Source: Proteromonas lacertae
Lineage: Eukaryota
NCBI GenBank assembly: GCA_002245135.1
Contig: NGBS01000331.1
Location: 1 to 64,000, forward strand
Direction of reading: 5' to 3'
DNA: 64,000 bases
Made by a program: the position numbers and the translations under genes. The notes under the pieces were generated by a model, which worked only from the letters and a program-made list of their open reading frames with translations, had not been told where the DNA came from and made no database searches. How positions within the stretch are numbered: the first letter of the stretch is position 1; each line of letters opens with the position of its first letter. Shown piece by piece: positions 1,590 to 36,920 of the stretch.

Positions 1590-2739
1590 TTAAATATTTC
1601 CAAGCTCTATTATATTTGAGAATATATTCATTACTGACATAATGAATGAAGATATATTGAAATTTATATATTTAACATATAATTTCGTATATGTCAATTT
1701 ATATATAAAATAATGCAATCCTAACTGTGTTCCCAATTTTTGCAAATGCATATATAGGATCTTTTGGAGAAATTTCTATAACAACAGTATACCTTTTGGA
1801 AAAATAAATATTAGTCAATCCTGATCCATGATAACCGATAATTATTTTTGCATATGTAAACCAGCAATATATATCATCTAATATAAGATAATTATCGTTA
1901 TATACTATTATGCTTATATTGAAATAGTGTATTAAGCATCTTTTTAATTCATTTTAAATTTTGTAATATTCGATTCTTTGATCTTTGAAGTAATAGAATA
2001 TAATTCAGCTTAGAATTATTACATTGTTTATTAGCCATTCTCTTTCTTAATATTTCACTAAATTTTATTATTAATGGTGTTGATGATTTAACACAATAAA
2101 ATGGAGTAGGTACTAACAAATTAATAAACAAAGTGCTTACCATATATGATTCTATTATTGGAAAAGCCTAAAAGATTTAGAATTTTTTCTGCTGTATTTT
2201 GACTATAACGAGGATATGATATGAATATTTTAATGTATGACCGATTTAAAAGGTAATTTATATATGGAATTATCCTTGTTAATCCTTCAACTGTGGCCAT
2301 GAAAAACTCCATCGGCATGCCAATTTATTAAATTAAATCCATAATTAACTATTGGCAAAGCTTCATTTTCCTTAATATTGTTTATATACCACCTAAAATC
2401 ATTGCACTGCCCTTTAAAAAATAGAATTTTACAATTACTAATTATAATTCTATCAGTAACAAATACATTTTTCATTAAAAGTAAAATATAATTATCATAA
2501 TCGTTGTTATTCAAATAATAAAGCTGACTATTTTTTCCTGATATAATTGTAATATAATTCGATCTTGATTTAGTAAATAATATTTGTGAAGTAATCATTC
2601 TAATGTTTTTTGTAGATGAATTGATTATTTTTATATTTGAACAATAAAAATTTCTTTTATTAATTATAATACTGTAATAAAATAAATTCATAATCAATAG
2701 AATAATTAATATTTTATTATAATAATTACATATAGTCAT
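1590..2739 (-). pseudogene. Frameshifted copy of the GT61 glycosyltransferase
   Basis: Mirror of 16196-17341, split into ORFs 2287-2769, 2121-2318 and 1949-2143 by small indels that may be sequencing errors. Confidence 0.85.
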
Positions 2740-2747
2740 ATATAAAT

Positions 2748-3801
2748 CAGTGTTGTATTTTTCGGTCAAAAAATATAGGTTTACCTATAGGTCAAAACCT
2801 ATATCTTTAGCTTGACCTTTACCTTCCTTATACAAAATTAATGTTTTATACATCATCTTTCAAATATCAAATTTGACCGTCAGTCGATGCACTTTTTATA
2901 TTACTATTATTTTGATCTATTTCTCAATGATGACTCACAATAACATATTATTAACATAATATTAAATTAATTATAGAATAAAAAAATAAAAGAAAAAAAC
3001 ATCAAGCTTGATGGTTTGACTAAGATAATCTTTATTTATAAGACTTTATAATATATGAAACTATAGGGATATCACATTACCATCTTTCGCATCGAAAGAA
3101 GTTGTGGATTTATTCAATTATAAAATGTTTCATAAAAATATTAACTACTTCAAAATGTTTTGGAAAACGTGATTAAAATAAAATATTCAGATTATTACAT
3201 ATGGTAAAAGCCAAAGTCAATTCAGATTCTGTCAACAAAGATCTATTTAAATTCATAACCTTCAATGCAGTCAGTACCACAATATTAGACTCACCAGTAT
3301 TTAGAAGGTTTTGCTTCAAACTAGGATATAGTATAACTCGAAGAGAGGTTTATAATGATTATTTATTTTCAGAAACTGAGAAAGTAAGAGACTTATTGAA
3401 GACAAATCATTAATATCCAGAAATAGAGATTTATTATTATAATTACATTAATATTTGTTTTTTAGAGATAGTAATCAATATAAATTAATCATCAAAATAA
3501 CAAGTTGTTTATAAATATGTTAAATATCACTATTGAGTAGTTTGTAGATGAATTTTAATATATCAGAATAGATATTTATACAATTTCAACAAATCTTAGT
3601 CATAACTATAGTAACTAAAGTAAAACAAGAAGCAGGAATAATATTTTATATAGTATGATAGTTTGTATAAAACAAATGTTACTCAGTATGTAATTAAAAT
3701 AGATTTTAACAAAATAATGCTTGAGGTTTGACCGACCGACGGTCAAAGCTAGATTATAGGTTTTACCTATAACCTATAAGTTACCTATTTATACAACCCT
3801 G
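2748..3801 (+). mobile_element. Non-autonomous hAT DNA transposon (1054 bp)
   Basis: Imperfect TIRs CAGTGTTGTAT / ATACAACCCTG and a perfect 8-bp TSD ATATAAAT (2740-2747, 3802-3809). Internal ORF 3201-3413 resembles a hAT transposase segment (ILDSPVFRRF...Y.I..R). Confidence 0.9.
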
Positions 3802-3807
3802 ATATAA

Positions 3808-4641
3808 ATGATAGTATTGAAATATTTTCTATTTGTGATATTTTTATTCGCTGTAGCTAAATATTATTTTAATAATATAAATGGCAAAGGTAATTGTAAT
3901 AATTCCGAAATATACAATTTAAAAGAGTTTAGTATAGAGTTGATGAAAAAAGTTGTATTAAATAGTATATATGAAAATGGATCCTGGATAATAGACGGAA
4001 GTTCATGGCCGAAAGGTAATGCTCTTACAATGGTGGGAATGAGAAGATTAAATAATTTGCATTTATTAATTCAGAATATCATTGAAAAAAATATTAAAGG
4101 TGATATTATAGAGGCTGGATGTTGGAGAGGAGGGGCAATGATATTAGCAAGGACTATACTAAATTTATACAACCAAAATAACCGAAATGTCTACATGTGT
4201 GATTCATTCTCAGGAATACCACCAATGCCTAATTCAAAATATGTTCAAGATAAAGCAGCTCATACTTATGATATATTGAATAACAATCCTGTAGAAAATC
4301 TTTTCAAAATACTAAAAATCTTAAATTTAGAGAGAGGAACAATTGTAGTAAAAGGTTATTTTAATGAAACTCTTTATAAAATACCATCAAAATCGTTTTC
4401 AATAATTCGATTGGATGGCGATACATACATTAGCACTTGGCAAGCAATTTCTATTCTTTATCCTAAATTATCAATAGGAGGATATGTTATTATTGATGAT
4501 TACATTGGGTGGATATCCTGTAAACAAGCTATTACTGATTATAGAAAGAAATACAATATTGATGAAGAAATAATCGAAGTGTTTCATGAAAAAGGAGAAA
4601 GAATAAGAGGAGTTTATTGGGAAAAAAAGAAGAATATATAA
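3808..4641 (+). CDS. TylF/MycF/NovP-family (macrocin-type) sugar O-methyltransferase with N-terminal signal anchor
   Basis: Motifs TMVG..RL, GDIIEAGCWRGG, CDSFSG, KGYFNETL, IRLDGDTYIST, LSIGGYVIIDDY; hydrophobic N-terminus. Confidence 0.93.
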   Translation: MIVLKYFLFVIFLFAVAKYYFNNINGKGNCNNSEIYNLKEFSIELMKKVVLNSIYENGSWIIDGSSWPKGNALTMVGMRRLNNLHLLIQNIIEKNIKGDIIEAGCWRGGAMILARTILNLYNQNNRNVYMCDSFSGIPPMPNSKYVQDKAAHTYDILNNNPVENLFKILKILNLERGTIVVKGYFNETLYKIPSKSFSIIRLDGDTYISTWQAISILYPKLSIGGYVIIDDYIGWISCKQAITDYRKKYNIDEEIIEVFHEKGERIRGVYWEKKKNI

Positions 4642-4899
4642 TTTATTTTATTAATAATAATAATTTGTAAGAAACATTAAATAGGTATACAAAAGCGGTG
4701 ATTTTCTATTCCAAAAGTATTGTAAATGTATAGCTTGAATAACATCTCTAACATCTATTGTCAAGATATTTTATCTTTCAAAGCCATCCCTAATATAGTA
4801 TTATCAATAATAATCCTTCCTATTACTAATATATTTAATATTTTCATTTGATTTTCATTAAAAGTATATTTTGTAGCTGAGATATTCCATCGTAAGATT

Positions 4900-5100
4900 C
4901 ACTTAGTACCTGACAGCTATCAGATGGATATCGTCTTCTTCCTACCGAAGAATAGCTACAAGCACGATAGCTTTACTTAGTTCACGTGCAGTACATAGTC
5001 AAGGAAGTAGATGAATACTATGTGATGAGCATCCTCAATTGCTCAGTCTCCGAGGTCAAGAGATTACATTATAAGAGAATAGCCAATGCTGGCTTGCACA
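4900..5100 (+). pseudogene. Relic of a Polinton-type rve integrase
   Basis: Translates to PDSYQMDIVFFLPK and later MSILNCSVSEVKRLHYKRI. These match PGYFQMDIVFFLP / LLDRSVS..KRLLYK of the integrase at 45616-46918. Mirror copy at ~13835-14035. Confidence 0.7.
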
Positions 5101-5203
5101 TCAGAGAAGCTCTTGAACATAAAGCAATTCGGCATTATAATGTATATTAATGGAATTTATCACTATGATCATCATTATATTAATTTGGGCAGAATCCATG
5201 TTA

Positions 5204-6190
5204 TTATTTTTTATTGCATAGATGATGACAATATTTTACATCTTTAGGTAAAGATATTTTAGTGTAATTTTTTGCAAATAACGATAAGCTTGTATATCTC
5301 AATGGTGCATCTCCCCATCTATAGATAAACTGACCATAACTTAAATCTACTAACATCATAAACTGAAACATTTTTCTATTTCTAAAAAAATTCAATCTAC
5401 ATATTTCAAAATTATTATAATAAATAAGTGCACTTGAATTAAAATTTTTACTAAATCTATTAACATCTTCTACTTTAATCTTTAATGCATTAATAAATGA
5501 AAATGTAAAATCTTTTAATCCTTTTGTTACAAATGCAGCATCGTATAAAATTCTATTATGCATATATATAATTTCATCACTCATATAATTAAATAAATTC
5601 ACAGAAGTATTTAAAATAGATTCTGAATCAAGTCTCATGATCATATCTGAATCACACAATAATGGATGGATAAAAATACTTTTAAAAAAGAACCTACACA
5701 TGTGTTGATAATTCCATTTTCCTCTTTTCATGTAGTTTGGTTTATATGCAGACGTATTAAATTTGTAGGGAAATGTATAAAAATAAGATGAAACATCAAC
5801 AACAGAATAGAAAATATTACGATATTTGTCATCTAGTGTAATGTTTTCTGTAACAAAGAAAATTAATTTATCATAATGTTTTTGATTTAAAAATAGATAA
5901 TTTTTATCAATAAAAGGTTTTATATTATTATAATACAGTAGAACAATAATTGTCCTTTTTTTACCATTGCATGATTTGCACATATGATATAATCTATTTA
6001 TATATGGCAGTCTTTGATTATAAAGATTAATTGAATTAATAAACATTTTTGAATAATTATAATTATTTATTAATTCTATTTTTTCAAACATTAAATCTAT
6101 TTTTGATAAATTAATTTTTTTAATATATAATAATATGAATAGAGAAAAGAATAATAAGAATATTTTAATATATCTAATTATGAATATCAT
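5204..6190 (-). CDS. GT15 (Kre2/Mnt1-like) alpha-1,2-mannosyltransferase
   Basis: YQHMCRFF, MRLDSES, YNNFEI, YRWGDAPLR motifs; type II membrane anchor. Confidence 0.92.
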   Translation of the reverse strand: MIFIIRYIKIFLLFFSLFILLYIKKINLSKIDLMFEKIELINNYNYSKMFINSINLYNQRLPYINRLYHMCKSCNGKKRTIIVLLYYNNIKPFIDKNYLFLNQKHYDKLIFFVTENITLDDKYRNIFYSVVDVSSYFYTFPYKFNTSAYKPNYMKRGKWNYQHMCRFFFKSIFIHPLLCDSDMIMRLDSESILNTSVNLFNYMSDEIIYMHNRILYDAAFVTKGLKDFTFSFINALKIKVEDVNRFSKNFNSSALIYYNNFEICRLNFFRNRKMFQFMMLVDLSYGQFIYRWGDAPLRYTSLSLFAKNYTKISLPKDVKYCHHLCNKK

Positions 6191-6202
6191 AGAATAATAA
6201 TA

Positions 6203-7126
6203 TTAAGGCTGTTTTAATGAATTTGATATATTAAAAGCAGATCCTGAATGATTTATAGATTTTGAATGTTTTACATAGAATATAAATGACTTAGGCAAAT
6301 CAAGATCGGATATATACCAATCAATATGATGAGCAACATAAGGTGACAGAGATCTAAAAGAATATTGTGAATGTCTTCTAAATTTTGTTGTTCTTTTTCT
6401 CATTCCAAATATAGTGTCAATATCTGCATTAATAAGAGTATAATATTGATTTTTGTAAAATATATCATAGTGGTTCCTTCTTAGATAATTTGTTTCAAAA
6501 GTATATACTTTTCTAAAATCAGGAAATTTATTAGATATATCGTTAACCATTAGTGATGGACCTACTACACTTACATTGCAATTACTCAGTACTGAGGCAT
6601 AAAAATCAAATATATTTGTTGGTATATTTATCATTATAATATCTATATCTGATAAAATATAATATTTAATATTTATATTTAAACTAAGATAAGAAATTAT
6701 GATATTTGGGACCTCTATATCGATTAAATATTTCCAGCTATTCTGTTTGAGATAAACAATATCTATATCATATTTATTTTCTATAAAATTATAATATTTT
6801 AAAAGTGGCAGATAAGTACTACTATGATCCAATATAACTAACTTTATATTATTATTTCTATTGAATTTCATCCAATACTTAATTGAATAATATACTGCAT
6901 ATAGCCTATCTCTAGATAAAAGAAATATAAAGATACTGCTAACATGAATAACTTTAATAGGATATAAGCAATTTAATTTGTTTAACCTATTCATTTTAAG
7001 ATTTTCAAATTCTCTTATATATTCATATTTTATAGTATTACTTTCATTCTCGCAATAAATAACTCTAAAACATAAAAGTAGAAAAATAGTAATTACTATA
7101 ACTGTTATTAGAGAAAATAATAACAT
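6203..7126 (-). CDS. GT-A fold glycosyltransferase (GT2-like)
   Basis: ILDHSSTYLPLL, DxD (SDID), ADIDTIF motifs; N-terminal TM. Confidence 0.7.
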   Translation of the reverse strand: MLLFSLITVIVITIFLLLCFRVIYCENESNTIKYEYIREFENLKMNRLNKLNCLYPIKVIHVSSIFIFLLSRDRLYAVYYSIKYWMKFNRNNNIKLVILDHSSTYLPLLKYYNFIENKYDIDIVYLKQNSWKYLIDIEVPNIIISYLSLNINIKYYILSDIDIIMINIPTNIFDFYASVLSNCNVSVVGPSLMVNDISNKFPDFRKVYTFETNYLRRNHYDIFYKNQYYTLINADIDTIFGMRKRTTKFRRHSQYSFRSLSPYVAHHIDWYISDLDLPKSFIFYVKHSKSINHSGSAFNISNSLKQP

Positions 7127-7170
7127 AAATAAACATATATTGATCTTTTTGATAAAACTCTAATTATTAC

Positions 7171-8199
7171 ATGTTTATAAACTTAATTATATCTCTTTTT
7201 GTTATTAATATATTATATAATATCAATATTATTATCTACTATAATTATTATCATTTAATATACTATAATTATAATAACAGCATAAATATGTATATTCATA
7301 GTAATCAGCAACTAATCATATCGTTTGCACTAAATTACAATTTCTCTAAAATTCAAAATTTTATTATGTCATTAAACAAAACAAAATATTCAGGAAATTT
7401 AATTATTTTTACATTTTCTACTATAGAAATAATAAATAAATTATTTCTATCATATCATATACATTTAATAATACTTAATAAGACATATCCATTTTATCCA
7501 TATAATGATAAATCCTTTCCAATATCTAGGTCGAATATTATAAAATATCTGTTTTTATATAATAGCATATCGTTCTTTACCTATAGATATTTCATTATAA
7601 AATTGTTCATTAGATTCTATGGATATAGATTTAAATATATATTATTAACAGATATTAGAGATGTTTTATTCCAATTAAATCCATTCAATTGGAATATTAA
7701 AAAAGGAATATATTTGGTGGAAGAGCATCCTCGAAGAAAAATAGGGGGAGATAAATCAAATACATTATATGTGAAAAATTATAGACCTACTTCAAAAATA
7801 TATAAAAGCAATGTACTTAATGGAGGAATATTATTTGGTACTTATCCTGATTTATTAACATTTCTTGATGATTTTTTAAAGTATATATGTTCTTTTAACT
7901 GTAATGAGAATGATCAAGGTGGTTTAAATTCATATATATGGAATACACATTCATTTAAGTATCCTATATACATACTTAACTCATCGCATTCACCTGTTAG
8001 AACATTAGCTTTATGGTTATTTGATTCAAATATATGTTGTTTACCTGTTAAAAATGTAATTCTTAATTTAGACTTGTCTATACCATTAATTATTCATCAA
8101 TATGATAGAGCTATAAAAGCAACTAAAAACAATTTTAGCTCAGTCATATTATATAAAACATATTTATATTTTTATACAGAGTGTCGAAATTTTTCATAA
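7171..8199 (+). CDS. Putative GT-A glycosyltransferase
   Basis: LTDIRDVLFQLNPF, LNGGILFG, NDQGGLN, IIHQYDR motifs; N-terminal TM. Confidence 0.72.
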   Translation: MFINLIISLFVINILYNINIIIYYNYYHLIYYNYNNSINMYIHSNQQLIISFALNYNFSKIQNFIMSLNKTKYSGNLIIFTFSTIEIINKLFLSYHIHLIILNKTYPFYPYNDKSFPISRSNIIKYLFLYNSISFFTYRYFIIKLFIRFYGYRFKYILLTDIRDVLFQLNPFNWNIKKGIYLVEEHPRRKIGGDKSNTLYVKNYRPTSKIYKSNVLNGGILFGTYPDLLTFLDDFLKYICSFNCNENDQGGLNSYIWNTHSFKYPIYILNSSHSPVRTLALWLFDSNICCLPVKNVILNLDLSIPLIIHQYDRAIKATKNNFSSVILYKTYLYFYTECRNFS

Positions 8200-8238
8200 T
8201 ACTTATACGATTTAGTATCGCAATAAATTCTATATCAA

Positions 8239-8551
8239 TTAAAATTTCAAAGGGTGATAAAATTTATTGTGGTTGCTTTTAGTATGTATTATATTGTACC
8301 ATCTTTCTTTTGTCAATGTTTTACCAGCAGAGAAAGGAGAACCTATATAAACTTTGGATATTACTTCATATGAAAGATTGTAATACAAAGCAGTTTCAAT
8401 TGTACTTGTTTCAGTTTGCGAATGATAACTATTTTGCAAATCATGTATCATATATCTAAAATAATACTTAGACCATCTTTGAACATATTCTCTATTTACA
8501 TAACCATAATTATACTTAAAAATGGTATTTCTTCTATATTAATATTCTTTT
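8239..8551 (-). pseudogene. 3' fragment of gene 9832-10698 created at the palindrome breakpoint
   Basis: Near-identical to 10386-10698 in reverse; similarity stops at 8551. Confidence 0.9.
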
Positions 8552-8792
8552 TATGCATATTTGATATAAAATAATCTCTTTTATACTTATTTAAAAAGAA
8601 CAGCATAACTACAAAAAACAAAAAACTTATAGAAACAAATATTTATGTCGATATAAACGGGTTTGAGTGTAAATTCAAGTATCATTCAAGCATTATATAT
8701 ATTATCTAAAAAGATTTTACATTTTATATTTATACTACAACAATAATTCCATTACATATACATTCACAATTACTATAGAAGAGAATGACATT

Positions 8793-9632
8793 CTAAAACA
8801 TATAACATGCAGAATCTTTTATATAGAAACCAAGTTCCTTTTTAAATAATGCAACTTTATACCCTTTTACAACAATTCTTGATATAAAATCTAAATCCTC
8901 TGTTGAATAAAGCGATTCATTGTAAAGAATATATTTCATTATATCTCTTTTTATTGAAGGCCAACCATTTGTTATATAGAATCTATTTGACACATCACAC
9001 ATATATATTCTACCATTATTATAAAATGTATTCCTACATCTTTCTGTAATTTTATTATATTGATTAATAACAGCATATTTTTTATATTCTTTTGTAAGAT
9101 TAACTGAATCAAGCAAACTATAGTTTCTTGTTGAAGGATGAAATACTACATCAATCTTTGAATTTTCATAAAATATTTTATGAATTATGTATAGTCTGTA
9201 TATTGACATTATATCGTCAATATCAAAAAATGAAAGTATTTGACATTGTGAATGGATATATCCAAAGTTTCGGTTTGACGCAGCATTATACTTATTATAT
9301 CTAAGCAGAATTACTAATTTCTGTGTGCATTTTTTTAATTCTTTTGATTTTTGTTTATTGTATTTTGATAAATTAGCATTAACTCCTGACAATACAATAA
9401 TTATTTCTTCCGGATATTGTAAAGAATTGCATATACTTCTTTTTAAAGTATTAAAACATCTTTCATAGTCTTCATAAGTTGAAGGTATTATTAGTGATAT
9501 ACAAAATGGATGTATATTAGATATTAAGTAAATATACTTTTCACATATAATTAATAATATAAATGAAAAGATAATAATAATTAATTTGTTTAAATCTATT
9601 TGTATATGTTGTTGAATATTATGAATTTGCAA
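8793..9632 (-). CDS. GT2-family glycosyltransferase (start uncertain)
   Basis: SLIIP, AASNRNFG, FFDIDD, TEDLDF motifs; paralogue of 19025-19831; no clear ATG upstream of the TM. Confidence 0.82.
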   Translation of the reverse strand: MQIHNIQQHIQIDLNKLIIIIFSFILLIICEKYIYLISNIHPFCISLIIPSTYEDYERCFNTLKRSICNSLQYPEEIIIVLSGVNANLSKYNKQKSKELKKCTQKLVILLRYNKYNAASNRNFGYIHSQCQILSFFDIDDIMSIYRLYIIHKIFYENSKIDVVFHPSTRNYSLLDSVNLTKEYKKYAVINQYNKITERCRNTFYNNGRIYMCDVSNRFYITNGWPSIKRDIMKYILYNESLYSTEDLDFISRIVVKGYKVALFKKELGFYIKDSACYMF

Positions 9633-9831
9633 CTACTGGTTATTAAAACATTAAGATGGCATTCTAATCTAATTACTTTAAATTGGCAACCTTGGAGTTG
9701 CATCAGTTCCATTATCTAGTGAGGTGTAATTCATGCCTGGATGAAGTAAGTGTGTTGTATATTGATATGAGTTCTCTTACTTTGAACTTATTTGAAATGG
9801 GGTTATAATACGTATAAATACTACATTTTTA

Positions 9832-10698
9832 ATGAAATTCAAAATATTTTCTAAGTATTTTTTAGTTATGATATTTTATTTTGTTTGTTATAGTATTAAC
9901 ATATACAAAGTTTTAAGAAATAATATATTTTATTCATGTATAGTAATTAGAGTAAAAGATGTAACGACTAAGCAACTTGAAAGGTATATACAATGGAAAA
10001 AATCTTTTCCTAAAGAATATGACTTCTTTATCCTTTCAATGAATAAAATAAATACAAATATTCTAAAAACCTCTGGTGTAATAAATATAGTAGTAACATT
10101 CAATGAAATATTGTTAAAATATCCAAATATTACTAGATTAAATGGTAATTGTTCTAGCTTTAAATCTTCAAGATTACTTTCGTGGATTTCTCATTCTGAA
10201 TCATTAGTTATTCTATACTCAAAATTTATAAAAAGATTTGATTATATTTGGATTATAGAACAAGATGTTGGTTATACTGGAAAATTATATGATTTTATTA
10301 GATTATATAATAACTGCACTAAAGATTTTATAACAATGAATATAGGAAAAATAACACCCAAGTGGGTATGGTTTAATTGTGCCACAAAAGAATATTTATA
10401 TAGAAGAAATACCATTTTTAAGTATAATTATGGTTATGTAAATAGAGAATATGTTCAAAGATGGTCTAAGTATTATTTTAGATATATGATACATGATTTG
10501 CAAAATAGTTATCATTCGCAAACTGAAACAAGTACAATTGAAACTGCTTTGTATTACAATCTTTCATATGAAGTAATATCCAAAGTTTATATAGGTTCTC
10601 CTTTCTCTGCTGGTAAAACATTGACAAAAGAAAGATGGTACAATATAATACATACTAAAAGCAACCACAATAAATTTTATCACCCTTTGAAATTTTAA
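9832..10698 (+). CDS. Signal-anchored putative glycosyltransferase (W..EQD motif; DUF3405-like)
   Basis: FDYIWIIEQDVGYTG, C-terminal FYHPLK, N-terminal TM; paralogue of 22812-23603. Confidence 0.6.
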   Translation: MKFKIFSKYFLVMIFYFVCYSINIYKVLRNNIFYSCIVIRVKDVTTKQLERYIQWKKSFPKEYDFFILSMNKINTNILKTSGVINIVVTFNEILLKYPNITRLNGNCSSFKSSRLLSWISHSESLVILYSKFIKRFDYIWIIEQDVGYTGKLYDFIRLYNNCTKDFITMNIGKITPKWVWFNCATKEYLYRRNTIFKYNYGYVNREYVQRWSKYYFRYMIHDLQNSYHSQTETSTIETALYYNLSYEVISKVYIGSPFSAGKTLTKERWYNIIHTKSNHNKFYHPLKF

Positions 10699-10737
10699 TT
10701 GATATAGAATTTATTGCGATACTAAATCGTATAAGTA

Positions 10738-11764
10738 TTATGAAAAATTTCGACACTCTGTATAAAAATATAAATATGTTTTATATAATATGACTGAGCT
10801 AAAATTGTTTTTAGTTGCTTTTATAGCTCTATCATATTGATGAATAATTAATGGTATAGACAAGTCTAAATTAAGAATTACATTTTTAACAGGTAAACAA
10901 CATATATTTGAATCAAATAACCATAAAGCTAATGTTCTAACAGGTGAATGCGATGAGTTAAGTATGTATATAGGATACTTAAATGAATGTGTATTCCATA
11001 TATATGAATTTAAACCACCTTGATCATTCTCATTACAGTTAAAAGAACATATATACTTTAAAAAATCATCAAGAAATGTTAATAAATCAGGATAAGTACC
11101 AAATAATATTCCTCCATTAAGTACATTGCTTTTATATATTTTTGAAGTAGGTCTATAATTTTCACATATAATGTATTTGATTTATCTCCCCCTATTTTTC
11201 TTCGAGGATGCTCTTCCACCAAATATATTCCTTTTTTAATATTCCAATTGAATGGATTTAATTGGAATAAAACATCTCTAATATCTGTTAATAATATATA
11301 TTTAAATCTATATCCATAGAATCTAATGAACAATTTTATAATGAAATATCTATAGGTAAAGAACGATATGCTATTATATAAAAACAGATATTTTATAATA
11401 TTCGACCTAGATATTGGAAAGGATTTATCATTATATGGATAAAATGGATATGTCTTATTAAGTATTATTAAATGTATATGATATGATAGAAATAATTTAT
11501 TTATTATTTCTATAGTAGAAAATGTAAAAATAATTAAATTTCCTGAATATTTTGTTTTGTTTAATGACATAATAAAATTTTGAATTTTAGAGAAATTGTA
11601 ATTTAGTGCAAACGATATGATTAGTTGCTGATTACTATGAATATACATATTTATGCTGTTATTATAATTATAGTATATTAAATGATAATAATTATAGTAG
11701 ATAATAATATTGATATTATATAATATATTAATAACAAAAGAGATATAATTAAGTTTATAAACAT
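10738..11764 (-). pseudogene. Copy of the 7171-8199 glycosyltransferase with two homopolymer deletions
   Basis: 1027 nt versus 1029 nt; A5>A4 and T5>T4 changes, possibly sequencing errors. Confidence 0.85.
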
Positions 11765-11808
11765 GTAATAATTAGAGTTTTATCAAAAAGATCAATATAT
11801 GTTTATTT

Positions 11809-12732
11809 ATGTTATTATTTTCTCTAATAACAGTTATAGTAATTACTATTTTTCTACTTTTATGTTTTAGAGTTATTTATTGCGAGAATGAAAGTAATAC
11901 TATAAAATATGAATATATAAGAGAATTTGAAAATCTTAAAATGAATAGGTTAAACAAATTAAATTGCTTATATCCTATTAAAGTTATTCATGTTAGCAGT
12001 ATCTTTATATTTCTTTTATCTAGAGATAGGCTATATGCAGTATATTATTCAATTAAGTATTGGATGAAATTCAATAGAAATAATAATATAAAGTTAGTTA
12101 TATTGGATCATAGTAGTACTTATCTGCCACTTTTAAAATATTATAATTTTATAGAAAATAAATATGATATAGATATTGTTTATCTCAAACAGAATAGCTG
12201 GAAATATTTAATCGATATAGAGGTCCCAAATATCATAATTTCTTATCTTAGTTTAAATATAAATATTAAATATTATATTTTATCAGATATAGATATTATA
12301 ATGATAAATATACCAACAAATATATTTGATTTTTATGCCTCAGTACTGAGTAATTGCAATGTAAGTGTAGTAGGTCCATCACTAATGGTTAACGATATAT
12401 CTAATAAATTTCCTGATTTTAGAAAAGTATATACTTTTGAAACAAATTATCTAAGAAGGAACCACTATGATATATTTTACAAAAATCAATATTATACTCT
12501 TATTAATGCAGATATTGACACTATATTTGGAATGAGAAAAAGAACAACAAAATTTAGAAGACATTCACAATATTCTTTTAGATCTCTGTCACCTTATGTT
12601 GCTCATCATATTGATTGGTATATATCCGATCTTGATTTGCCTAAGTCATTTATATTCTATGTAAAACATTCAAAATCTATAAATCATTCAGGATCTGCTT
12701 TTAATATATCAAATTCATTAAAACAGCCTTAA
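11809..12732 (+). CDS. GT2-like glycosyltransferase (identical copy of 6203-7126)
   Basis: Identical protein. Confidence 0.7.
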   Translation: MLLFSLITVIVITIFLLLCFRVIYCENESNTIKYEYIREFENLKMNRLNKLNCLYPIKVIHVSSIFIFLLSRDRLYAVYYSIKYWMKFNRNNNIKLVILDHSSTYLPLLKYYNFIENKYDIDIVYLKQNSWKYLIDIEVPNIIISYLSLNINIKYYILSDIDIIMINIPTNIFDFYASVLSNCNVSVVGPSLMVNDISNKFPDFRKVYTFETNYLRRNHYDIFYKNQYYTLINADIDTIFGMRKRTTKFRRHSQYSFRSLSPYVAHHIDWYISDLDLPKSFIFYVKHSKSINHSGSAFNISNSLKQP

Positions 12733-12744
12733 TATTATTATTCT

Positions 12745-15127: not shown

Positions 15128-15133
15128 TTATAT

Positions 15134-16187: not shown

Positions 16188-16195
16188 ATTTATAT

Positions 16196-17341
16196 ATGAC
16201 TATATGTAATTATTATAATAAAATATTAATTATTCTATTGATTATGAATTTATTTTATTACAGTATTATAATTAATAAAAGAAATTTTTATTGTTCAAAT
16301 ATAAAAATAATCAATTCATCTACAAAAAACATTAGAATGATTACTTCACAAATATTATTTACTAAATCAAGATCGAATTATATTACAATTATATCAGGAA
16401 AAAATAGTCAGCTTTATTATTTGAATAACAACGATTATGATAATTATATTTTACTTTTAATGAAAAATGTATTTGTTACTGATAGAATTATAATTAGTAA
16501 TTGTAAAATTCTATTTTTTAAAGGGCAGTGCAATGATTTTAGGTGGTATATAAACAATATTAAGGAAAATGAAGCTTTGCCAATAGTTAATTATGGATTT
16601 AATTTAATAAATTGGCATGCCGATGGAGTTTTTCATGGCACAGTTGAAGGATTAACAAGGATAATTCCATATATAAATTACCTTTTAAATCGGTCATACA
16701 TTAAAATATTCATATCATATCCTCGTTATAGTCAAAATACAGCAGAAAAAATTCTAAATCTTTTAGGCTTTTCCAATAATAGAATCATATATGGTAAGCA
16801 CTTTGTTTATAATTTGTTAGTACCTACTCCATTTTATTGTGTTAAATCATCAACACCATTAATAATAAAATTTAGTGAAATATTAAGAAAGAGAATGGCT
16901 AATAAACAATGTAATAATTCTAAGCTGAATTATATTCTATTACTTCAAAGATCAAAGAATCGAATATTACAAAATTTAAATGAATTAAAAAGATGCTTAA
17001 TACACTATTTCAATATAAGCATAATAGTATATAACGATAATTATCTTATATTAGATGATATATATTGCTGGTTTACATATGCAAAAATAATTATCGGTTA
17101 TCATGGATCAGGATTGACTAATATTTATTTTTCCAAAAGGTATACTGTTGTTATAGAAATTTCTCCAAAAGATCCTATATATGCATTTGCAAAAATTGGA
17201 ACACAGTTAGGATTGCATTATTTTATATATAAATTGACATATACGAAATTATATGTTAAATATATAAATTTCAATATATCTTCATTCATTATGTCAGTAA
17301 TGAATATATTCTCAAATATAATAGAGCTTGGAAATATTTAA
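16196..17341 (+). CDS. GT61-family glycosyltransferase
   Basis: IIIGYHGSGLTNIYFS..VVIEI motif, R..R.L.N segment, N-terminal TM. First ATG outside the transposon is 16196. Confidence 0.88.
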   Translation: MTICNYYNKILIILLIMNLFYYSIIINKRNFYCSNIKIINSSTKNIRMITSQILFTKSRSNYITIISGKNSQLYYLNNNDYDNYILLLMKNVFVTDRIIISNCKILFFKGQCNDFRWYINNIKENEALPIVNYGFNLINWHADGVFHGTVEGLTRIIPYINYLLNRSYIKIFISYPRYSQNTAEKILNLLGFSNNRIIYGKHFVYNLLVPTPFYCVKSSTPLIIKFSEILRKRMANKQCNNSKLNYILLLQRSKNRILQNLNELKRCLIHYFNISIIVYNDNYLILDDIYCWFTYAKIIIGYHGSGLTNIYFSKRYTVVIEISPKDPIYAFAKIGTQLGLHYFIYKLTYTKLYVKYINFNISSFIMSVMNIFSNIIELGNI

Positions 17342-19024: not shown

Positions 19025-19831
19025 ATGCAATATAAAAATTTTAAAGTCTATAGTTTTCTTATATTTATTTATTCTATTTATATGATTAGATTATATCTAC
19101 AGACATGTGACACAATCTATCCTTTTTGTGTTTCTCTTGTGATACCAGCAACAATTGAAGATTTTTACAGATGTTATATACCTTTTGCGAATAGTGTATG
19201 TAGTTCTATACAATATCCACAAGAAATAGTAATAGTATTGTCAGGTTTAGAATCAAATAAAAGCGAAATTCTAAAAATGTCAAATAGACTTAAAAGATGT
19301 ACAAATCAGCTTATTATAGTATATAGAAGAAACAAATATAATGCAGCTTCAAATAGAAATGTTGGTTATCATTGTTCACATTGTTCAGTTATTTCATACT
19401 TTGATGTGGATGATAGAATGTCAAAATATAGAATTCACATATTATATAGAATATTTAGTGAAAATAAAAATGTAGATGTAGTTTTTCATCCTTCAACTAA
19501 AAATATTGCTATTTTAGATATGTACAATTTATCAAAATTGTATAAAAAATATGTGGTAACTAATCAGTTTAATGAAATAACTAGAAGATGCAAAGATACA
19601 TTTTCATATGATAATAAAATATATAAATGCGATGTTTCAAATAAATATTATATTACAAATGGTTGGCCATCTATAAAAAGGAATATTATGAATATTATTC
19701 AATTTAATGAATCGCTGAATTCAACCGAAGATTTAGATTTTATATCTAGAATAGTTGTGAAAGGATTCAAAGTAGCATTATTTAAATCACCGTTAGGATT
19801 CTATATAAAAGATAATCAATGCAAAATATAG
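19025..19831 (+). CDS. GT2-family glycosyltransferase
   Basis: SLVIP, AASNRNVG, YFDVDD, TEDLDF; N-terminal TM. Confidence 0.85.
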   Translation: MQYKNFKVYSFLIFIYSIYMIRLYLQTCDTIYPFCVSLVIPATIEDFYRCYIPFANSVCSSIQYPQEIVIVLSGLESNKSEILKMSNRLKRCTNQLIIVYRRNKYNAASNRNVGYHCSHCSVISYFDVDDRMSKYRIHILYRIFSENKNVDVVFHPSTKNIAILDMYNLSKLYKKYVVTNQFNEITRRCKDTFSYDNKIYKCDVSNKYYITNGWPSIKRNIMNIIQFNESLNSTEDLDFISRIVVKGFKVALFKSPLGFYIKDNQCKI

Positions 19832-20065
19832 CTTTATTCACAATAAAAATAAGATATAAGTACATATTTAAGTATATATGGATTTTAGAACAAGATATTG
19901 GCTTTTCTGGAAATATAAATAAACTATTTTTAAAATATGAAAAAATTAAGTCAGATCTTATAACTACACATTTCTTTGTAAATAATAAGGGGTGGTATTA
20001 TTGCTGTACAAAAGAGTATATGAAATATAGAAATAAAAAGCTAAATGAAAAGGTTAATAAAACTA
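19826..20065 (+). pseudogene. Internal ~240-bp duplicate of gene 22812-23603
   Basis: Near-identical direct repeat of 23111-23350. Confidence 0.9.
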
Positions 20066-20178
20066 AGGCAATGCTACAATATTAATATTTCTGAAGAATG
20101 GTTTGATAGATTTAATAATAATTTCGCTTTTAAGTAATTCATTGAAATAAATTTATAATCTATAATAAGATTTAAAAA

Positions 20179-21583: not shown

Positions 21584-21625
21584 ATTTAGAAAACTATTTC
21601 ATTTTATTGTGTTTATAAAGAAGTA

Positions 21626-22705
21626 ATGAAAATTTTAACATATTATTATTTGTTAATATATTATTTTTTAATTATTATTCTCATGGTATATAGTAAAAAA
21701 TACAGTTCTATCACAAATAATAGCGTATTGAATACACTGATGTGCTTAAAGAATGCTACATGTAAAGAAAAGTGTTTAAAGCAAAAGAATACTAGATACA
21801 TACATATGATATATAGAGAATCAGATTATCCTCACCCATTCCCATTTGATTATTATTTTATCCATAATTCTACATGTCCAACTGATACATTTATATATAT
21901 ATTCATTATTTCTGAATGTAAACAAATGAGTGAAAGAAATTCAATCAGATTAACATGGGGTAAAAATTCTAAGTATATAACAGTAAGATATATTATAGGA
22001 ATTGGAAATGATGTTTGTAGCAGAAATTATGTTGTAGAAAACAGAATGTATGGAGACATGCTTCAATTAAATATACATGAATCATTTTCTAATGAAACAT
22101 TATTTACTCTTTACACAATGAAATTTCTGAATACACTATGTCCATATTCTCAATACTATGCAAAGTTTGATGTTGATACATATGTAGATTTGAAAATGTT
22201 GTATGAAGAAATACAGCCATATCTATATAAAGAGTATCAATTTTGGGGCGCTGAAAAACAAAAATGGAAATGTATAAATTCAAATCCGTCATTTAAATAT
22301 AGTTCTCCTAAAAATATAGCAGAATACTATAATAAACAGTTTCCTGTCTCAGGTATTGATGTATACTCAGGTTTTGCAACAATATTTTCTTCTGATATAC
22401 CTATATTATTATTTAATGAATCGCTTAGAAATGCATACTTAATAAGAATTGACGATCAATATATTTCATGGTTATTATATAGGCTTCATCTTAAAATAAA
22501 TAGAATATCTAGTTATGCAGTTCTTCCTAATAGATGTGCAATTCATAAAAATGTTACAGTTATACATAGAATAATATCTACTGATATTCTATCATATTCA
22601 TTATACTACAAAAAAACATCAATTTCAATATATCCACCGCAAAAATATTTAATATCGCAATCACATAACATAACTTTCAAAACAGCTAATCCTCTTAAAT
22701 CTTGA
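21626..22705 (+). CDS. GT31 (beta-1,3-galactosyltransferase-like) glycosyltransferase
   Basis: RNSIRLTWG, ENRMYGDMLQ, KFDVDTYV, SGF, IDDQYIS motifs; TM. Confidence 0.88.
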   Translation: MKILTYYYLLIYYFLIIILMVYSKKYSSITNNSVLNTLMCLKNATCKEKCLKQKNTRYIHMIYRESDYPHPFPFDYYFIHNSTCPTDTFIYIFIISECKQMSERNSIRLTWGKNSKYITVRYIIGIGNDVCSRNYVVENRMYGDMLQLNIHESFSNETLFTLYTMKFLNTLCPYSQYYAKFDVDTYVDLKMLYEEIQPYLYKEYQFWGAEKQKWKCINSNPSFKYSSPKNIAEYYNKQFPVSGIDVYSGFATIFSSDIPILLFNESLRNAYLIRIDDQYISWLLYRLHLKINRISSYAVLPNRCAIHKNVTVIHRIISTDILSYSLYYKKTSISIYPPQKYLISQSHNITFKTANPLKS

Positions 22706-22811
22706 ATATCTTTTTTGAACATTTAACATGTAATACTGTTTCATCAAACATTAGCCATAAATTTTAAGAATATTTAATTCTTATAAGTATAATAGTGTAG
22801 TTGTTATTATT

Positions 22812-23603
22812 TTGTATTTTACATTCCTAAGAAATTCAAAATATAAGTACTATAAAAATGTAATACTAATTCGTTTTCATATTTTAACAAAAATACAATT
22901 TAATAGATTTCTATTATGGATAAATTTATCAAAACCTTATAACATATATTTATTTTTATCAGACTATAAATGTGAAAGATACAGAAAGATGAGAATAATC
23001 TATTGTATAAACTTTAATGAAGTACTTCATAGATATCCTTCTTTAACAAAAAGTGGCTTTTGTGGAAAAAAACAATCACATTTCTTTATGTGGGCTTTTC
23101 ATATTGAACATATAGTTTTATTCACAATAAAAATAAGATATAAGTACATATTTAAGTATATATGGATTTTAGAACAAGATATTGGCTTTTCTGGAAATAT
23201 AAATAAACTATTTTTAAAATATGAAAAAATTAAGTCAGATCTTATAACTACACATTTCTTTGTAAATAATAAGGGGTGGTATTATTGCTGTACAAAAGAG
23301 TATATGAAATATAGAAATAAAAAGCTAAATGGAAAAGGATATAAAACTAGCGAACATATTCAAAGATGGAGTCTGAAATACATTAATTATATTCAGCTAT
23401 TTTTGAAGAAGAACATGCATTCTCATTCTGAGCATGCTAGTATAGAGTTTCTGCTGTTTTCAAATCTATCATATCAATCCTTTTCTTTAAGTGACATTGG
23501 ATATAAATTTTCATATAAAACTAAAGTATCAAAACAAGAATGGGGTAGAATAATTAATAATTCATCATTGAATAACAGACTGTTTCATTCACTAAAATAT
23601 TAA
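22812..23603 (+). CDS. Putative glycosyltransferase, paralogue of 9832-10698 (5' end uncertain)
   Basis: YIWILEQDIGFSG, EHIQRWS, LFHSLK. Confidence 0.6.
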   Translation: MYFTFLRNSKYKYYKNVILIRFHILTKIQFNRFLLWINLSKPYNIYLFLSDYKCERYRKMRIIYCINFNEVLHRYPSLTKSGFCGKKQSHFFMWAFHIEHIVLFTIKIRYKYIFKYIWILEQDIGFSGNINKLFLKYEKIKSDLITTHFFVNNKGWYYCCTKEYMKYRNKKLNGKGYKTSEHIQRWSLKYINYIQLFLKKNMHSHSEHASIEFLLFSNLSYQSFSLSDIGYKFSYKTKVSKQEWGRIINNSSLNNRLFHSLKY

Positions 23604-24329
23604 CAGTAAAATTAATATAAGCATTTTTATTTAGTATGGGTAAACCTCTTCTTAATGAAAACTGTATAAGATTTAAAGTATATTATCTAATTTATATACA
23701 TTTTTTTTAACACTTAAGAAGAACTTCCTGAAAGTATTCTGTTTTTATTTAATGATTTGTTTACTATTTTTATGGTAAACATATATTATATAAAAATAAC
23801 AAAATAAGAGGGATAGAATCATTATATATATAAATATGTATAATAGTGAAAAAATGCGAATTGAATAGCCTTTTAAAATTTGAGCGCCCTTTATTTGTGG
23901 CTTTTTTTAATTTTATGATTTTTTTACTTTCTATTATTTAAATGATTCAAATCCATATTTCTCCATATAAAATACATTTACTTTATACAAATACCTTTCC
24001 TTAATTTACTCTTAACTCTTTCGAAATTAAACAAATAATAAAAATATTAATATACACTATAAATAAATATTATTTTAGAAGACAGGAGTTTAAAAAAGAA
24101 ACAATACTTTGTTCAAGCCACGGCTTGTGTTAAATTTTGTATTAGACATCTTTAAATTTTTATTTTATTTTATGAGTTATATATATGTGTTATGCACCGT
24201 TTTACAATATTATGGACATTTTAGAGGGATTGGAAATGAGTATAATTTTTGAAATAATGATTCGAATATTATTATATATGTGCGAATATTTTATTTTTGA
24301 TCAAAACAAACCCAACAAACTATATATTA

Positions 24330-25407
24330 ATGTTATTTTCAAATATATACTATGTTAATAAAAACAAAACCCTCTTTATCATTTTAATTATTTCCATTTT
24401 TTTATTTCTTAATAATGCTTATAATACTCAAAGAATAATTTATATATATACTAAGCCAAATTCTGGAGGTTTGGGAAACAAATTACTAGGAATTAGCTCA
24501 TCATTAATTCTAGCATTTATTAGTAGCAGACGCCTTGTCCGTATAATAGTGTAATATATTGATAGTATATGAGACATATTCATTATTAAATATAGTAAAC
24601 TTCAATGAGATAATAATTGTTAATAAAAATTATTTGAAAGTCGAAAATTGCCGAATTTATAAATTTTCAGGTTATTCTTATAATAAATCATTTCAAAATA
24701 TAATTAATGAAATAATCGCTTTTAAAATAAGAAATATTGAAGTTATAACTCACTATGACTTAGTTCCGCAGTTATTATATGCCGATCAGATATATAATAA
24801 ATTATTAAAATTGAAATTATTGAAGCAAAATATACATCAACACAATGATCAGATCATATATATAAATTCAATAATTTTCAATAAGTATATCAGATTAAAA
24901 CTATTTTCAACAACTCTTACTAAAAGAAATACATTTTATATAGGAGCTCATATAAGATTAGGTGATAATTGTATGATTAAGCAAAATAAATGTAAAATTG
25001 ATACTAATAGTTATCAAAGAATATTAAAACTATATACTAATATATGTGGAAATAGAAGCTGCAAGTTAATGTTAAGCAGCGATAATAAATTTTTTATTTA
25101 TAAAATTAAACAATACATCCATGACAGCATAACATATAAAGAAGAATATGAAATATATCATAGCAGTGGAATAAGTAAAAATAAGAACTATTCTAAATCA
25201 TTTTATTTTAAACTGCTTGGTGATATTGATTTGCTTACAAGAAGTGATTTTTTAATTTTATCTCCGAGAAGTACATTCTCATTATTAATTTTATATAATT
25301 TAAATAAAAAGAAAAGAAAAAGTAAATATTATATGTTTCATGATGGAACTTACGCAATTTATGATCCTTTATGTTATGAAATTATAAAAAGATTAAATAA
25401 AAAATAA
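24330..25407 (+). CDS. Fucosyltransferase-like GT-B enzyme (GT11/23/37-type), 2 exons
   Basis: A 25-nt intron at 24541-24565 joins the two ORFs in frame; GGLGNKL, GAHIRLGD, LSSDN, STFS motifs; TM. Confidence 0.82.
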
Positions 25408-25938
25408 TTATTATGAATTGTGTTTAAGATTACAATTAATTTTTGCATGAGTAATTTTTAAAGTGGAATTGACTTTTATAATTGTATATCCACAGAGAAC
25501 CATTACTACTAATGGAGTTGCACTCAAAATACATAATTATACAATGTCTTTAACAAAGAGACTATGTATTTAAAATGTTATCGTTCAGCATTATTTGGAA
25601 TGCTATACAATGAAGGTAACTTTAGAATAATTGTAGGTATGTTTATGCAAAATATAAGACTAATATAAAGTAAAATATTAATGATAACAAACTTTAATAT
25701 TATTGAAAATAATTGCTCGCTTGAGATAATGCCTTTGTGTTCTTTATGTTGCTATAAATTATTTTTTTAATATTATTTTCATCTGTAAATTGCAACTATA
25801 CTGGGAAATATAACAACTATTGATCTACTAATATTCCTTATGTCTTTCTAATCTATATAAATTATTATTATTATTAATTGAATGATTTTAGATAGAGAAT
25901 AATTCAAATTGACTATGAATATTCTATTTAAATAGAAG

Positions 25939-27111
25939 ATGTATAGAATTAAGAAGTATAAATGTGTATATATCTATTCAATTTATGTTGTTATTAGTTA
26001 TATTATAATTGTTTCATGCTTTACATTTAATGTTCATTTTATATCATTAAAAGAAAAATTCATACCATTTAACAGAATGATAATTAACAATTTTTACCTC
26101 AGCAGTTCATATTATGATGCAAGATTTAGAGTAATAAGAATTTTAATATCTTATAATCCATATAATGAATATAAATTTGAGGTAAAACATAATATTAATA
26201 ATGGACTGAATTATTCAATAATTACGTATGATAAATGTATTCCATCAGAAAATAAATTTAGATTAAAATATGGCAATATTGTAATTAAAAGTGAGAATAT
26301 TTATGATAGATTATACATTTTTTACGACAATAGAAATTATACTGTATTTATTAATAATGTAGATAAATATTCTAAGATTTATTCATTAACTTGGTGTTTA
26401 ACATCTCTTAGAAATCATTATGATGCTATAACACAGTTTAATCAAACAATAAGTTTATCAATAAAATTTAAAGTAGATAGAATAATACTATACTACTCTG
26501 ATGTTAGTAATAGAGTTATGAATTTAATCAAGAAATATGAAGAAAAAGGATTATTAATATCATACTCTTTCAAAGAGAATTCTGAATCATGTGATATGAA
26601 AGTCTGTGGAAAACTTCTTCAACTAAATGATTGCTTCTATAAGTCTTTATATAATACCAAATATATATTAAATGTTGATATTGATGAAATTATTATTCCA
26701 AAGATTCATAGTAATTATTTATCATTATTAAAATATAGCCGAAGTATCAATCCTAATATTAACATGTATATATTCTACACAAAGCTATGCATAAAATCAA
26801 GTGTACTTTACAAAGAAGAAAGAAAATCTCCTGCGCAATATTTAATGTTGCCTACTGTTATGGATTCAAATATATACAACATAAAAAATTGTTGTAAAAT
26901 ATCTGTTGTAAAAACAGCTTGTAGCAAATATATAATTGAACCAACAATGATTGAAGCTTTATGGCTACATGATATATGGAGTGGCAAATATAACTATACA
27001 ATCATACCTATTGAAATTGCATACACAAGACATACTAGGCATTTATCATACGGACTAAGTAAAGTATGTTCTAATTATTCTGCTGACGAAATTAGAGAGT
27101 TATACAGATAA
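25939..27111 (+). CDS. GT92 (DUF23) glycosyltransferase
   Basis: QLNDCFY...KYILNVDIDEIIIP, SKYII, H..H motifs; TM. Confidence 0.85.
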   Translation: MYRIKKYKCVYIYSIYVVISYIIIVSCFTFNVHFISLKEKFIPFNRMIINNFYLSSSYYDARFRVIRILISYNPYNEYKFEVKHNINNGLNYSIITYDKCIPSENKFRLKYGNIVIKSENIYDRLYIFYDNRNYTVFINNVDKYSKIYSLTWCLTSLRNHYDAITQFNQTISLSIKFKVDRIILYYSDVSNRVMNLIKKYEEKGLLISYSFKENSESCDMKVCGKLLQLNDCFYKSLYNTKYILNVDIDEIIIPKIHSNYLSLLKYSRSINPNINMYIFYTKLCIKSSVLYKEERKSPAQYLMLPTVMDSNIYNIKNCCKISVVKTACSKYIIEPTMIEALWLHDIWSGKYNYTIIPIEIAYTRHTRHLSYGLSKVCSNYSADEIRELYR

Positions 27112-29222: not shown

Positions 29223-29257
29223 CGAAATCAATAATCATTAATTCAAATTGAATTTAA

Positions 29258-36913: not shown

Positions 36914-36920
36914 ATTATAA

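Follow-up and report, generated by a model that had tools for sequence, protein, structure and literature searches.

A cluster of thirteen glycosyl- and methyltransferase-like genes in a mobile-element-rich region of a Proteromonas lacertae contig

The 64,000-nucleotide stretch of DNA analysed here (the window: positions 1 to 64,000 of contig NGBS01000331.1, Proteromonas lacertae, GenBank assembly GCA_002245135.1) carries at 8,793-27,111 an island of 13 distinct genes from about 11 families, all of them glycosyl- or methyltransferase-like. We favour, with a probability of about 0.58, the reading that these host genes form an island for the tailoring of glycans in the Golgi, set among mobile elements; i.e. 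a functional cassette for a variable surface glycan. It is preferred to an accumulation of dispensable genes because the island contains old paralogues under purifying selection and divergent gene pairs separated by tiny gaps, and has no tandem arrays. Island coordinates are given on the forward strand of the window.

Gene content of the island

Thirteen consecutive genes of one functional class are not a chance run, unless such genes fill most of the genome. Curated Pfam cut-offs are passed by eight of the thirteen (GT2 twice, GT15, GT31, GT61, GT77, GT92 and TylF); four others are of the glycosyltransferase A (GT-A) type by fold, features or paralogy, and one is fucosyltransferase-like by its motifs. 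No housekeeping gene was recognised by Pfam scan among the open reading frames of the 64-kb window, and no gene for nucleotide-sugar synthesis, a transporter, a polymerase, export or a glycan acceptor was found among the thirteen genes and the scanned spacer frames. Twenty spacer frames gave sub-threshold Pfam matches only, including a hAT dimerisation match (E 0.086) at 28,783-28,968. Scans of the window revealed no Rfam family, tRNA or telomere-like array, and an exact-sequence search of a protein collection with ten window proteins gave no match. The G+C fraction of the window is 0.21-0.28 up to 30 kb and 0.23-0.33 beyond.

An earlier note on this DNA had described about 13 distinct and mostly signal-anchored enzymes, without housekeeping genes, at 1590..27111. 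Its count and the absence of housekeeping genes hold for the island. The island itself is real, but the distinct set begins at 8,793, since 1,590-8,551 is an inverted repeat of five genes and part of a sixth. The family names GT15, GT61, GT77, GT31, GT92, GT2 and TylF stand above Pfam cut-offs, whereas the fucosyltransferase label is without a fitting database match. The anchors are clear in ten of the thirteen proteins (17-residue Kyte-Doolittle mean at the N-terminus 2.18-3.09) but weak in three (1.25-1.71). None of the thirteen has a second hydrophobic stretch of anchor strength, and a single N-terminal stretch is the predicted type II anchor layout of Golgi enzymes.

Short GT-AG introns in two of the genes, together with hAT-like and Polinton-like insertions flanked by target duplications, place the island in the nuclear genome of an AT-rich eukaryotic host, probably a protist. 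The introns were modelled in the genomic sequence from frame opening and GT-AG borders. Three predicted introns of 26, 26 and 24 nt (20,721-20,746; 20,956-20,981; 21,338-21,361) open the GT77 gene, the first having an equally long alternative, with the chosen model retaining the NSGF motif; a predicted 25-nt intron at 24,541-24,565 opens the fucosyltransferase-like gene to 350 aa. The other eleven genes need no intron, and the code is standard, with all three stop codons used as gene ends. Tortoise Blastocystis has a similar GC content of 21-23%, but its introns are reported to be longer than 30 nt (PMC10690189), in contrast to the 24-26 nt predicted here.

Proposed function and its alternative

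The Golgi is the predicted site of action of the anchored products, which would there assemble the side chains of a variable glycan, carried on a glycoprotein or glycolipid of the cell surface, and add O-methyl groups to them. The sugars proposed here all follow from the activities of the CAZy families. On family membership, GT15 would add alpha-1,2-mannose, GT31 and GT92 beta-linked galactose or N-acetylglucosamine (GlcNAc), GT77 and GT61 pentose or galactose branches and the fucosyltransferase-like enzyme fucose, while the four unclassified GT-A proteins and the two GT2-like proteins may add further residues. The TylF-type enzyme would use S-adenosylmethionine (SAM) and Mg2+ to methylate a sugar hydroxyl, thereby capping or masking the chain. 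Nucleotide sugars, transporters and the acceptor would have to be encoded elsewhere. Transcription is likely to be of single genes or divergent pairs, from very short promoters. Enzymes for linkages that match would stay together in such a cluster, and mobile elements could alter the coat stepwise. Mannose, glucose, GlcNAc and fucose have been reported from the Blastocystis coat (PMC5608401).

The reading that competes most directly with a functional cassette is a pile-up in an accessory region; i.e. expanded, dispensable glycan genes have gathered there with transposons and Polinton remnants, with neither a common product nor selection for linkage. We consider this unlikely, although far from negligible. 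It would account for the lack of recognised housekeeping genes in the window, the many homologue clusters per family, the absence of a common promoter word, the signs of gene decay, and the position of a gene of the same type (MT326), which stands alone among virus remnants 27 kb off. Yet pile-ups are usually tandem arrays of one family, whereas the island draws on 11 families, and paralogues occur in it as two pairs only, GT2a/GT2b (61% identical) and u288/u279 (32%), no other island genes aligning with each other. In the GT2a/GT2b pair the proportion of nonsynonymous differences (pN) is 0.26 against a saturated synonymous proportion (pS) of 0.58, which indicates purifying selection. The start codons of three divergent pairs lie 44 bp (u342/u307), about 211 bp (GT2b/u288) and, once an inserted transposon is discounted, 6 bp (TylF/GT61) apart, which suggests shared promoters, and the frames are long and open.

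Several observations nevertheless weigh against a working cassette. Up to four of the thirteen genes may be silent or decaying, since two (GT2b and u279) lack an in-frame ATG ahead of the anchor and two have a transposon against their start codons. Eleven families exceed the need of one linear chain and come with no acceptor or transporter, so that the genes possibly serve several glycans, or none in common. Many of the 16 relatives of GT15 may be paralogues of one another, which is what a wide dispersal of such genes in these genomes would produce. No close relative of any island gene occurs in the fetched loci (best identity 41%), and relatives of two island families occur together in 12 of 212 loci, relatives of three in none. 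Finally, no upstream word of 5-7 bases is shared by the 12 starts compared beyond the level of shuffled sequence (246, 488 and 498 of 500 shuffles reach the top count), a comparison that is weak evidence in AT-rich DNA.

Golgi glycosyltransferase genes are normally scattered, so that their products cannot be read from the genome. If the cassette reading is true, a compact transferase-only island of 13 genes would offer a ready pathway for a new surface glycan of a protist. It would also make a TylF-type sugar methyltransferase of eukaryotes available for assay for the first time, along with three GT-A families that are as yet unclassified. If the genes prove to be scattered genome-wide, the region is an ordinary accessory one that contains a few new families of enzymes.

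Table 1. Features of the window discussed in the text, the thirteen island genes first, in their order along the forward strand
Feature	Position	Strand	Remarks
GT2b, GT2-like glycosyltransferase	8793..9620	-	PF00535 E 2.3e-6, above cut-off
u288, DUF3405-like GT-A-fold protein (predicted)	9832..10698	+	profile relatives, predicted model, fold search
u342, unclassified GT-A-like protein	10738..11764	-	relatives, low-confidence model; two 1-bp deletions in this copy
u307, GT2-like by language-model features	11809..12732	+	second copy 6,203-7,126 (-)
GT15, Kre2/Ktr-type alpha-1,2-mannosyltransferase family	12745..13731	+	PF01793 E 2.2e-9; second copy 5,204-6,190 (-)
TylF/MycF/NovP-type sugar O-methyltransferase	14294..15127	-	N-terminal anchor; PF05711 E 1.2e-56; second copy 3,808-4,641 (+)
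GT61	16196..17341	+	PF04577 E 1.9e-12
GT2a, GT2-like glycosyltransferase	19025..19831	+	PF00535 E 8.4e-6, above cut-off
GT77, nucleotide-diphospho-sugar transferase, 442 aa	20179..21583	+	PF03407 E 5.8e-12 on exon 1
GT31, galactosyltransferase family	21626..22705	+	PF01762 E 1.2e-18
u279, paralogue of u288	22764..23603	+	32% identity over 280 residues, E 1.8e-35
Fucosyltransferase-like protein, 350 aa	24330..25407	+	one predicted 25-nt intron; presumed motifs
GT92	25939..27111	+	PF01697 E 1.4e-25
Inverted copy of 10,386-18,931	1..8551	-	extends to window edge
GT61, second copy	1,590-2,739	-	four 1-bp insertions
u342, second copy	7,171-8,199	+	open frame
Duplicated internal u279 fragment, 243 bp	19823..20065	+	97-98% identical to 23,107-23,349
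Non-autonomous hAT-like transposon, 1,054 bp	15134..16187		copy at 2,748-3,801; between divergent TylF and GT61
Polinton-like element A, 19.4 kb	28977..48384		265-bp inverted termini; 6-bp target duplication AGCTTG
MT326, signal-anchored methyltransferase-like gene of island type	53697..54677	+	outlying, 27 kb from island

Assignment of the individual proteins

The GT15 profile matches Ktr4 at 1.6e-18 and Kre2 at 2.3e-14, and the protein combines a profile score above the cut-off with the motifs YxHMCRF, NFEI and RWGDAP; by sequence it is a member of the Kre2/Ktr family, with a predicted activity. The TylF-type protein scores 192 bits against a PF05711 cut-off of 23 and matches NovP at E 2.3e-45, with the SAM and metal motifs EAGCWRGG, RLDGDTY and IIDDY aligned.

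Of the proteins below Pfam cut-offs, u288 has numerous relatives: a profile search gives 111 representatives at E<=0.001; DUF3405 is matched by 39 of 76 aligned family members at E<=0.01, while u288 itself scores 18 bits and thus falls below the cut-off of 25. The predicted model is confident (predicted local distance difference test, pLDDT, 94.3), and a Foldseek search with it reaches E 5.7e-7 to XXYLT1 and B3GNT2, with B3GalT5 also among the nearest structures; superposition on CHSY3 gives Z 14.3 and a root-mean-square deviation (rmsd) of 3.9 over 206 aligned residues. EQD occupies the DxD position as the acidic motif after the fourth strand. The predicted structure thus has the GT-A fold, and this confident model suggests that DUF3405 is a glycosyltransferase family. 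A conserved H-x-x-K motif is also found at the extreme C-terminus in the DUF3405-like family of u288, in which EQD likewise replaces DxD.

The remaining assignments are less firm. For u342, eight relatives at 54-66% identity were found among Logan proteins; the model is of low confidence (pLDDT 63.9), with GTB as the best fold match (Z 9.0, rmsd 4.0, 163 aligned). With fold matches at E 5e-4 or weaker and Z of 9 or less, it would fix the GT-A class only, and u342 is considered glycosyltransferase-like, its best matches being GT-A enzymes. No Pfam match was obtained for u307, which is not alignable to GT2a. It appears GT2-like by language-model features only, with Atlas scores of 0.96-0.97 and PF00535 on 29-38% of the members in two of the three best clusters. 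The fucosyltransferase-like protein carries the motifs GGLGN, HIRLGD and DIDLL..SD...STFS, which we take to be of the GT11/GT23/NodZ type; with the exons scanned separately, no fitting match was found in Pfam, NCBIfam, PHROGs, PDB sequences or plasmids.

A family of Pfam-less GT-A proteins related to u342 is confirmed in 105 GTDB and 249 IMG/VR stretches. Its members occur in glycan loci of bacteria and viruses together with TylF, FkbM, GT8, GT61 and epimerase genes, and it appears to be a widespread unnamed glycosyltransferase family.

Gene arrangement and the operon question

The island is not an operon, although it had been described as operon-like with very short gaps. Three of the thirteen genes are on the minus strand, making two convergent and three divergent junctions; no upstream word is shared above shuffles, and short gaps are reported as common in human Blastocystis genomes. 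In gene order the 12 gaps are 211, 39, 44, 12, 562, 1,068, 1,683, 347, 42, 58, 726 and 531 bp, those of 211 and 58 bp being approximate because they depend on the start codons of GT2b and u279. Gaps as short as those claimed thus exist (12, 39, 42, 44 and about 58 bp, five of the 12 being under 60 bp), but the other seven span 211-1,683 bp.

A true polycistronic operon, in which same-strand runs are co-transcribed and then processed, is very improbable. The last seven genes do share one strand, and u307-GT15 (12 bp), GT77-GT31 (42 bp) and GT31-u279 (about 58 bp) are closely spaced; however, genes occur on both strands, the same-strand run is interrupted by gaps of 347-1,683 bp, one of them occupied by a gene fragment, and a 12-bp gap would be too small for a trans-splicing signal. 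Spacing of tens of bases is reported to be frequent in human Blastocystis genomes, and neighbouring genes that lie this close are nothing unusual in some compact genomes of protists (PMC10690189). The Blastocystis downstream motif, given in degenerate form in the same source, occurs six times in the 64 kb and in no case just after an island gene. The 6-bp spacing of divergent starts bears on how transcription is initiated in genomes of such compactness.

Relatives and origin of the genes

Phylogenies of TylF (the top 120 of 2,740 matches) and GT15 (all 27 matches) were built by quick searches with Shimodaira-Hasegawa-like approximate likelihood ratio (SH-aLRT) support and drawn with midpoint rooting, so that donors are not nameable from them. 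The island TylF joins seven AT-rich proteins (support 96) and then a set of 14, most of them longer and one from an MMETSP transcript (94); within the 120 it is split (98) from 92 rows that contain both named bacterial proteins. Its closest relatives, the top seven by BLASTP, are Logan proteins at 48-77% identity. GT15 groups with 16 relatives (99), Logan proteins at 43-62% identity. Together with the eight relatives of u342, these Logan proteins indicate that the lineage of the host is represented in sequence data. A horizontal origin, for which gene phylogenies had been proposed as the check, is thus not upheld as a recent bacterial block: TylF stands outside the bacterial bulk and GT15 lies with its 16 relatives.

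Bacterial and viral relatives of the island genes are more distant, at 20-35% identity (20-33% for those of u342 and GT15). TylF-pattern searches gave 39 metagenome and two viral loci at 24-41% identity, none with a second island family, and an alignment scan of JGI metagenomes with GT15 gave 590 pattern matches, none confirmed. Among 159 bacterial or viral loci with a u342 relative, a TylF-type gene is found in nine, GT61 in two and a GT2 match in one, counts that include several redundant loci and stand without a control set. In five inspected loci of this kind, for which 40 of the 51 frames listed were scanned, most neighbours are glycan genes. These neighbourhoods support u342 as a glycan enzyme, not the island gene order.

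It is improbable that the whole island arrived at once, from a bacterial, giant-virus or Polinton-like donor, and gained its anchors and introns later. Eleven of the thirteen genes are intronless, gaps go down to 12 bp, relatives of u342 and TylF adjoin in bacterial and viral glycan loci, and glycosyltransferase domains have been reported in Polinton-like viruses (10.64898/2026.05.28.728513), all of which would fit such an arrival. The low identity of the bacterial and viral relatives and the place of TylF in its tree argue against it, as do the position of the island outside the neighbouring virus-like element (element A), from which its codon usage also differs, and its composition, since GT15, GT31, GT77 and GT92 occur mainly as Golgi families of eukaryotes. 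Transfer as a block in recent times is thus unlikely, while old, separate acquisitions are a possibility.

Comparison with known systems

By analogy, the island would work most like the glycan islands on the outlier chromosomes of Mamiellales, yet it is not a member of that group. Chromosome 19 of Ostreococcus tauri has GT92, other glycosyltransferases, an FkbM methyltransferase and transposons clustered, and it and the other Mamiellales outlier chromosomes share with the island diverse glycosyltransferases including GT92, methyltransferases including FkbM, shuffling of paralogues, transposons and inverted repeats (PMC5082852). These chromosomes, which have been proposed to change surface glycans, are 100-290 kb long, with 5-14 glycosyltransferases and 0-11 methyltransferases in 57-125 open reading frames, plus epimerases and sugar transporters (PMC5082852). 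The island resembles them in its enrichment for glycosyl- and methyltransferases together with transposons; it differs in that all thirteen genes in 18 kb are transferases, with no epimerase, sugar transporter or other sugar-supply gene, and in a host that does not look algal. It would test whether an antiviral glycan-island strategy as in Mamiellales recurs in other eukaryotes. A more far-reaching version of the proposal must be regarded as speculative: a non-algal protist would have independently evolved an Ostreococcus-type glycan switch, with an 11-family Golgi cassette for an O-methylated coat in a Polinton-invaded region, a true fold-back doubling, and a 6-bp divergent promoter gap rewired by a transposon, the coat being changed against viruses or host lectins.

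The galactosaminogalactan cluster of Aspergillus and other Pezizomycotina is a eukaryotic cluster for one surface polysaccharide, with a chemical modification step (PMC4817252). As described there, it consists of five co-regulated genes with synthase-type functions, like those for bacterial poly-N-acetylglucosamine, and a deacetylase; the island has many small anchored Golgi-type transferases and a methyltransferase. The island does contain at least three adjacent non-homologous enzymes (about 11 families), but it is not considered a member of this type; the two are alike in that the genes of each would serve a surface polymer that is chemically modified.

Bacterial capsule and O-antigen loci and giant-virus clusters, to which the locus had been compared, also place unrelated glycosyltransferase families side by side with TylF or FkbM, and in some bacterial or viral loci a u342-type glycosyltransferase stands beside TylF or GT61. 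The comparison fails for the capsule and O-antigen loci, since the island has no nucleotide-sugar enzyme, flippase, polymerase, ABC exporter or other transporter, and unlike them has mixed strands, N-terminal anchors and introns. A literature search, with supplements and most subscription papers outside its scope, gave no transferase-only multi-family island in gut or heterotrophic protists, and a search for TylF with eukaryotic glycans returned nothing relevant.

Inverted copy at the window start

The inverted copy at the left end of the window holds GT61, the hAT-like element, TylF, GT15, u307, u342 and the 3' third of u288, and is 99.8% identical to its source; their alignment of 8,555 columns contains 13 gap bases and two mismatches. 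Eleven of the gap bases fall in the first 2.3 kb of the window; four gap bases break the left GT61 and two others the right u342, and the sole internal substitution sits inside the transposon. At the junction near 8,540, u288 is cut near codon 185 and one mismatch is followed by 11 matching bases (chance about 3e-6), a match that is the mark of a template switch.

The copy is probably an assembly fold-back artefact, and whether real or artefact it adds no new gene. A real and very recent fold-back amplification, doubling the dose of five genes, is nonetheless a possibility to be taken seriously. Each arm has its own indels, and microhomology-primed fold-backs arise in cells too. Long inverted repeats have also been resolved by PacBio reads in the glycosyltransferase region of O. 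tauri chromosome 19 (PMC5082852). Yet 13 gap bases against one internal substitution is the pattern of long-read consensus error rather than divergence, the errors concentrate toward position 1 as at a thinning contig end, and the junction cuts u288. In addition, the commonest chimera to arise in amplification is an inverted one that has a short overlap and a distance below 10 kb (PMC9984789). The proposal that the locus was diversified by duplication thus stands for the two old paralogue pairs and the one recent 243-bp fragment copy, but the large duplication is more likely an artefact.

Mobile elements in and beside the island

The transposon between TylF and GT61 bears out the proposed reshaping of the locus by transposons. 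Its termini match in 10 of 11 bases and it is flanked by an exact 8-bp target duplication, ATTTATAT (chance about 1e-4); the hAT superfamily is assigned from these two features. An internal 78-aa frame has no Pfam match, and no hAT transposase was recognised in it. A partial second copy lies at 50,802-51,622. Given the spacing of their start codons without the element, transcripts of TylF and GT61 would either have started within the coding sequence of the opposite gene or have had next to no leader, and we infer that the insertion now either drives or silences the two genes.

Element A begins 1.9 kb downstream of the island, which lies outside its termini. Its protease is adenain-like (PF02902 E 1.1e-7; PF00770 E 6.1e-5). 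Its ATPase shares 46% identity with a fragment that weakly matches Pox_A32, its integrase is split over two frames, the integrase and ATPase matches both being weak, and its probable major capsid frame has one in-frame stop. The capsid labels are assigned from place and size, the frames so labelled having no database match. The element is called Polinton-like because no protein-primed polymerase B was recognised in 28,977-48,384. A pattern scan of IMG/VR viral contigs gave no relative of the capsid-like, ATPase and (neighbouring) integrase frames. Polinton/Maverick and MELD viruses, including those from Blastocystis data sets, have in common with element A the long inverted termini, the 6-bp duplication, an integrase, a packaging ATPase, an adenain-like protease and capsid genes without recognisable sequence relatives (PMC8502044); from these element A differs in its lack of a recognised polymerase and its broken key frames, and it neighbours the island rather than carrying it. 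Viruses of this kind have been described in data from Blastocystis and the rumen (PMC8502044) and in Parabasalia (10.1101/2024.03.23.586382).

The island is not virus cargo, because it lies outside the termini of element A and has separate codon usage: 12 of the 13 island genes favour an island codon model (one is neutral), and 13 of 14 virus-side frames favour a virus model. The outlying MT326 has a clear anchor (2.61) and island-like codon usage, and is flanked by virus-like repeats at 50,594-50,796 and 54,887-54,935. Its Atlas scores are 0.94-0.95 to unnamed eukaryotic clusters and only 0.83-0.84 to FkbM clusters, which is a lead.

Several minor features accompany these elements. The GT15-TylF spacer (13,732-14,293) contains a degenerate frame with QMDIVFFLP, also present in the element A integrase, a likeness not reported by tblastn at E 0.02. 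Small arginine/glycine-rich frames in element A (40,349-40,636) resemble core proteins. Miniature inverted-repeat elements lie at 48,515-49,122 (arms 186 bp, 98%) and 51,616-51,868 (arms 77 bp, 87%). At 50,594-54,935, a 4-kb host-like segment contains the partial hAT-like copy, a weak minor-capsid-like remnant and MT326. A virus-like repeat of higher GC content flanks it on both sides, one copy forming a 203-bp hairpin; possibly the segment is host DNA being captured by a Polinton-like element. A second Polinton-like remnant at 55,201-63,934 includes an ATPase C-terminus and an open 375-aa integrase frame. Within it a 683-aa frame without a Pfam match (61,883-63,934), presumably polymerase-like, ends early beside a GC-rich repeat at the end of the window.

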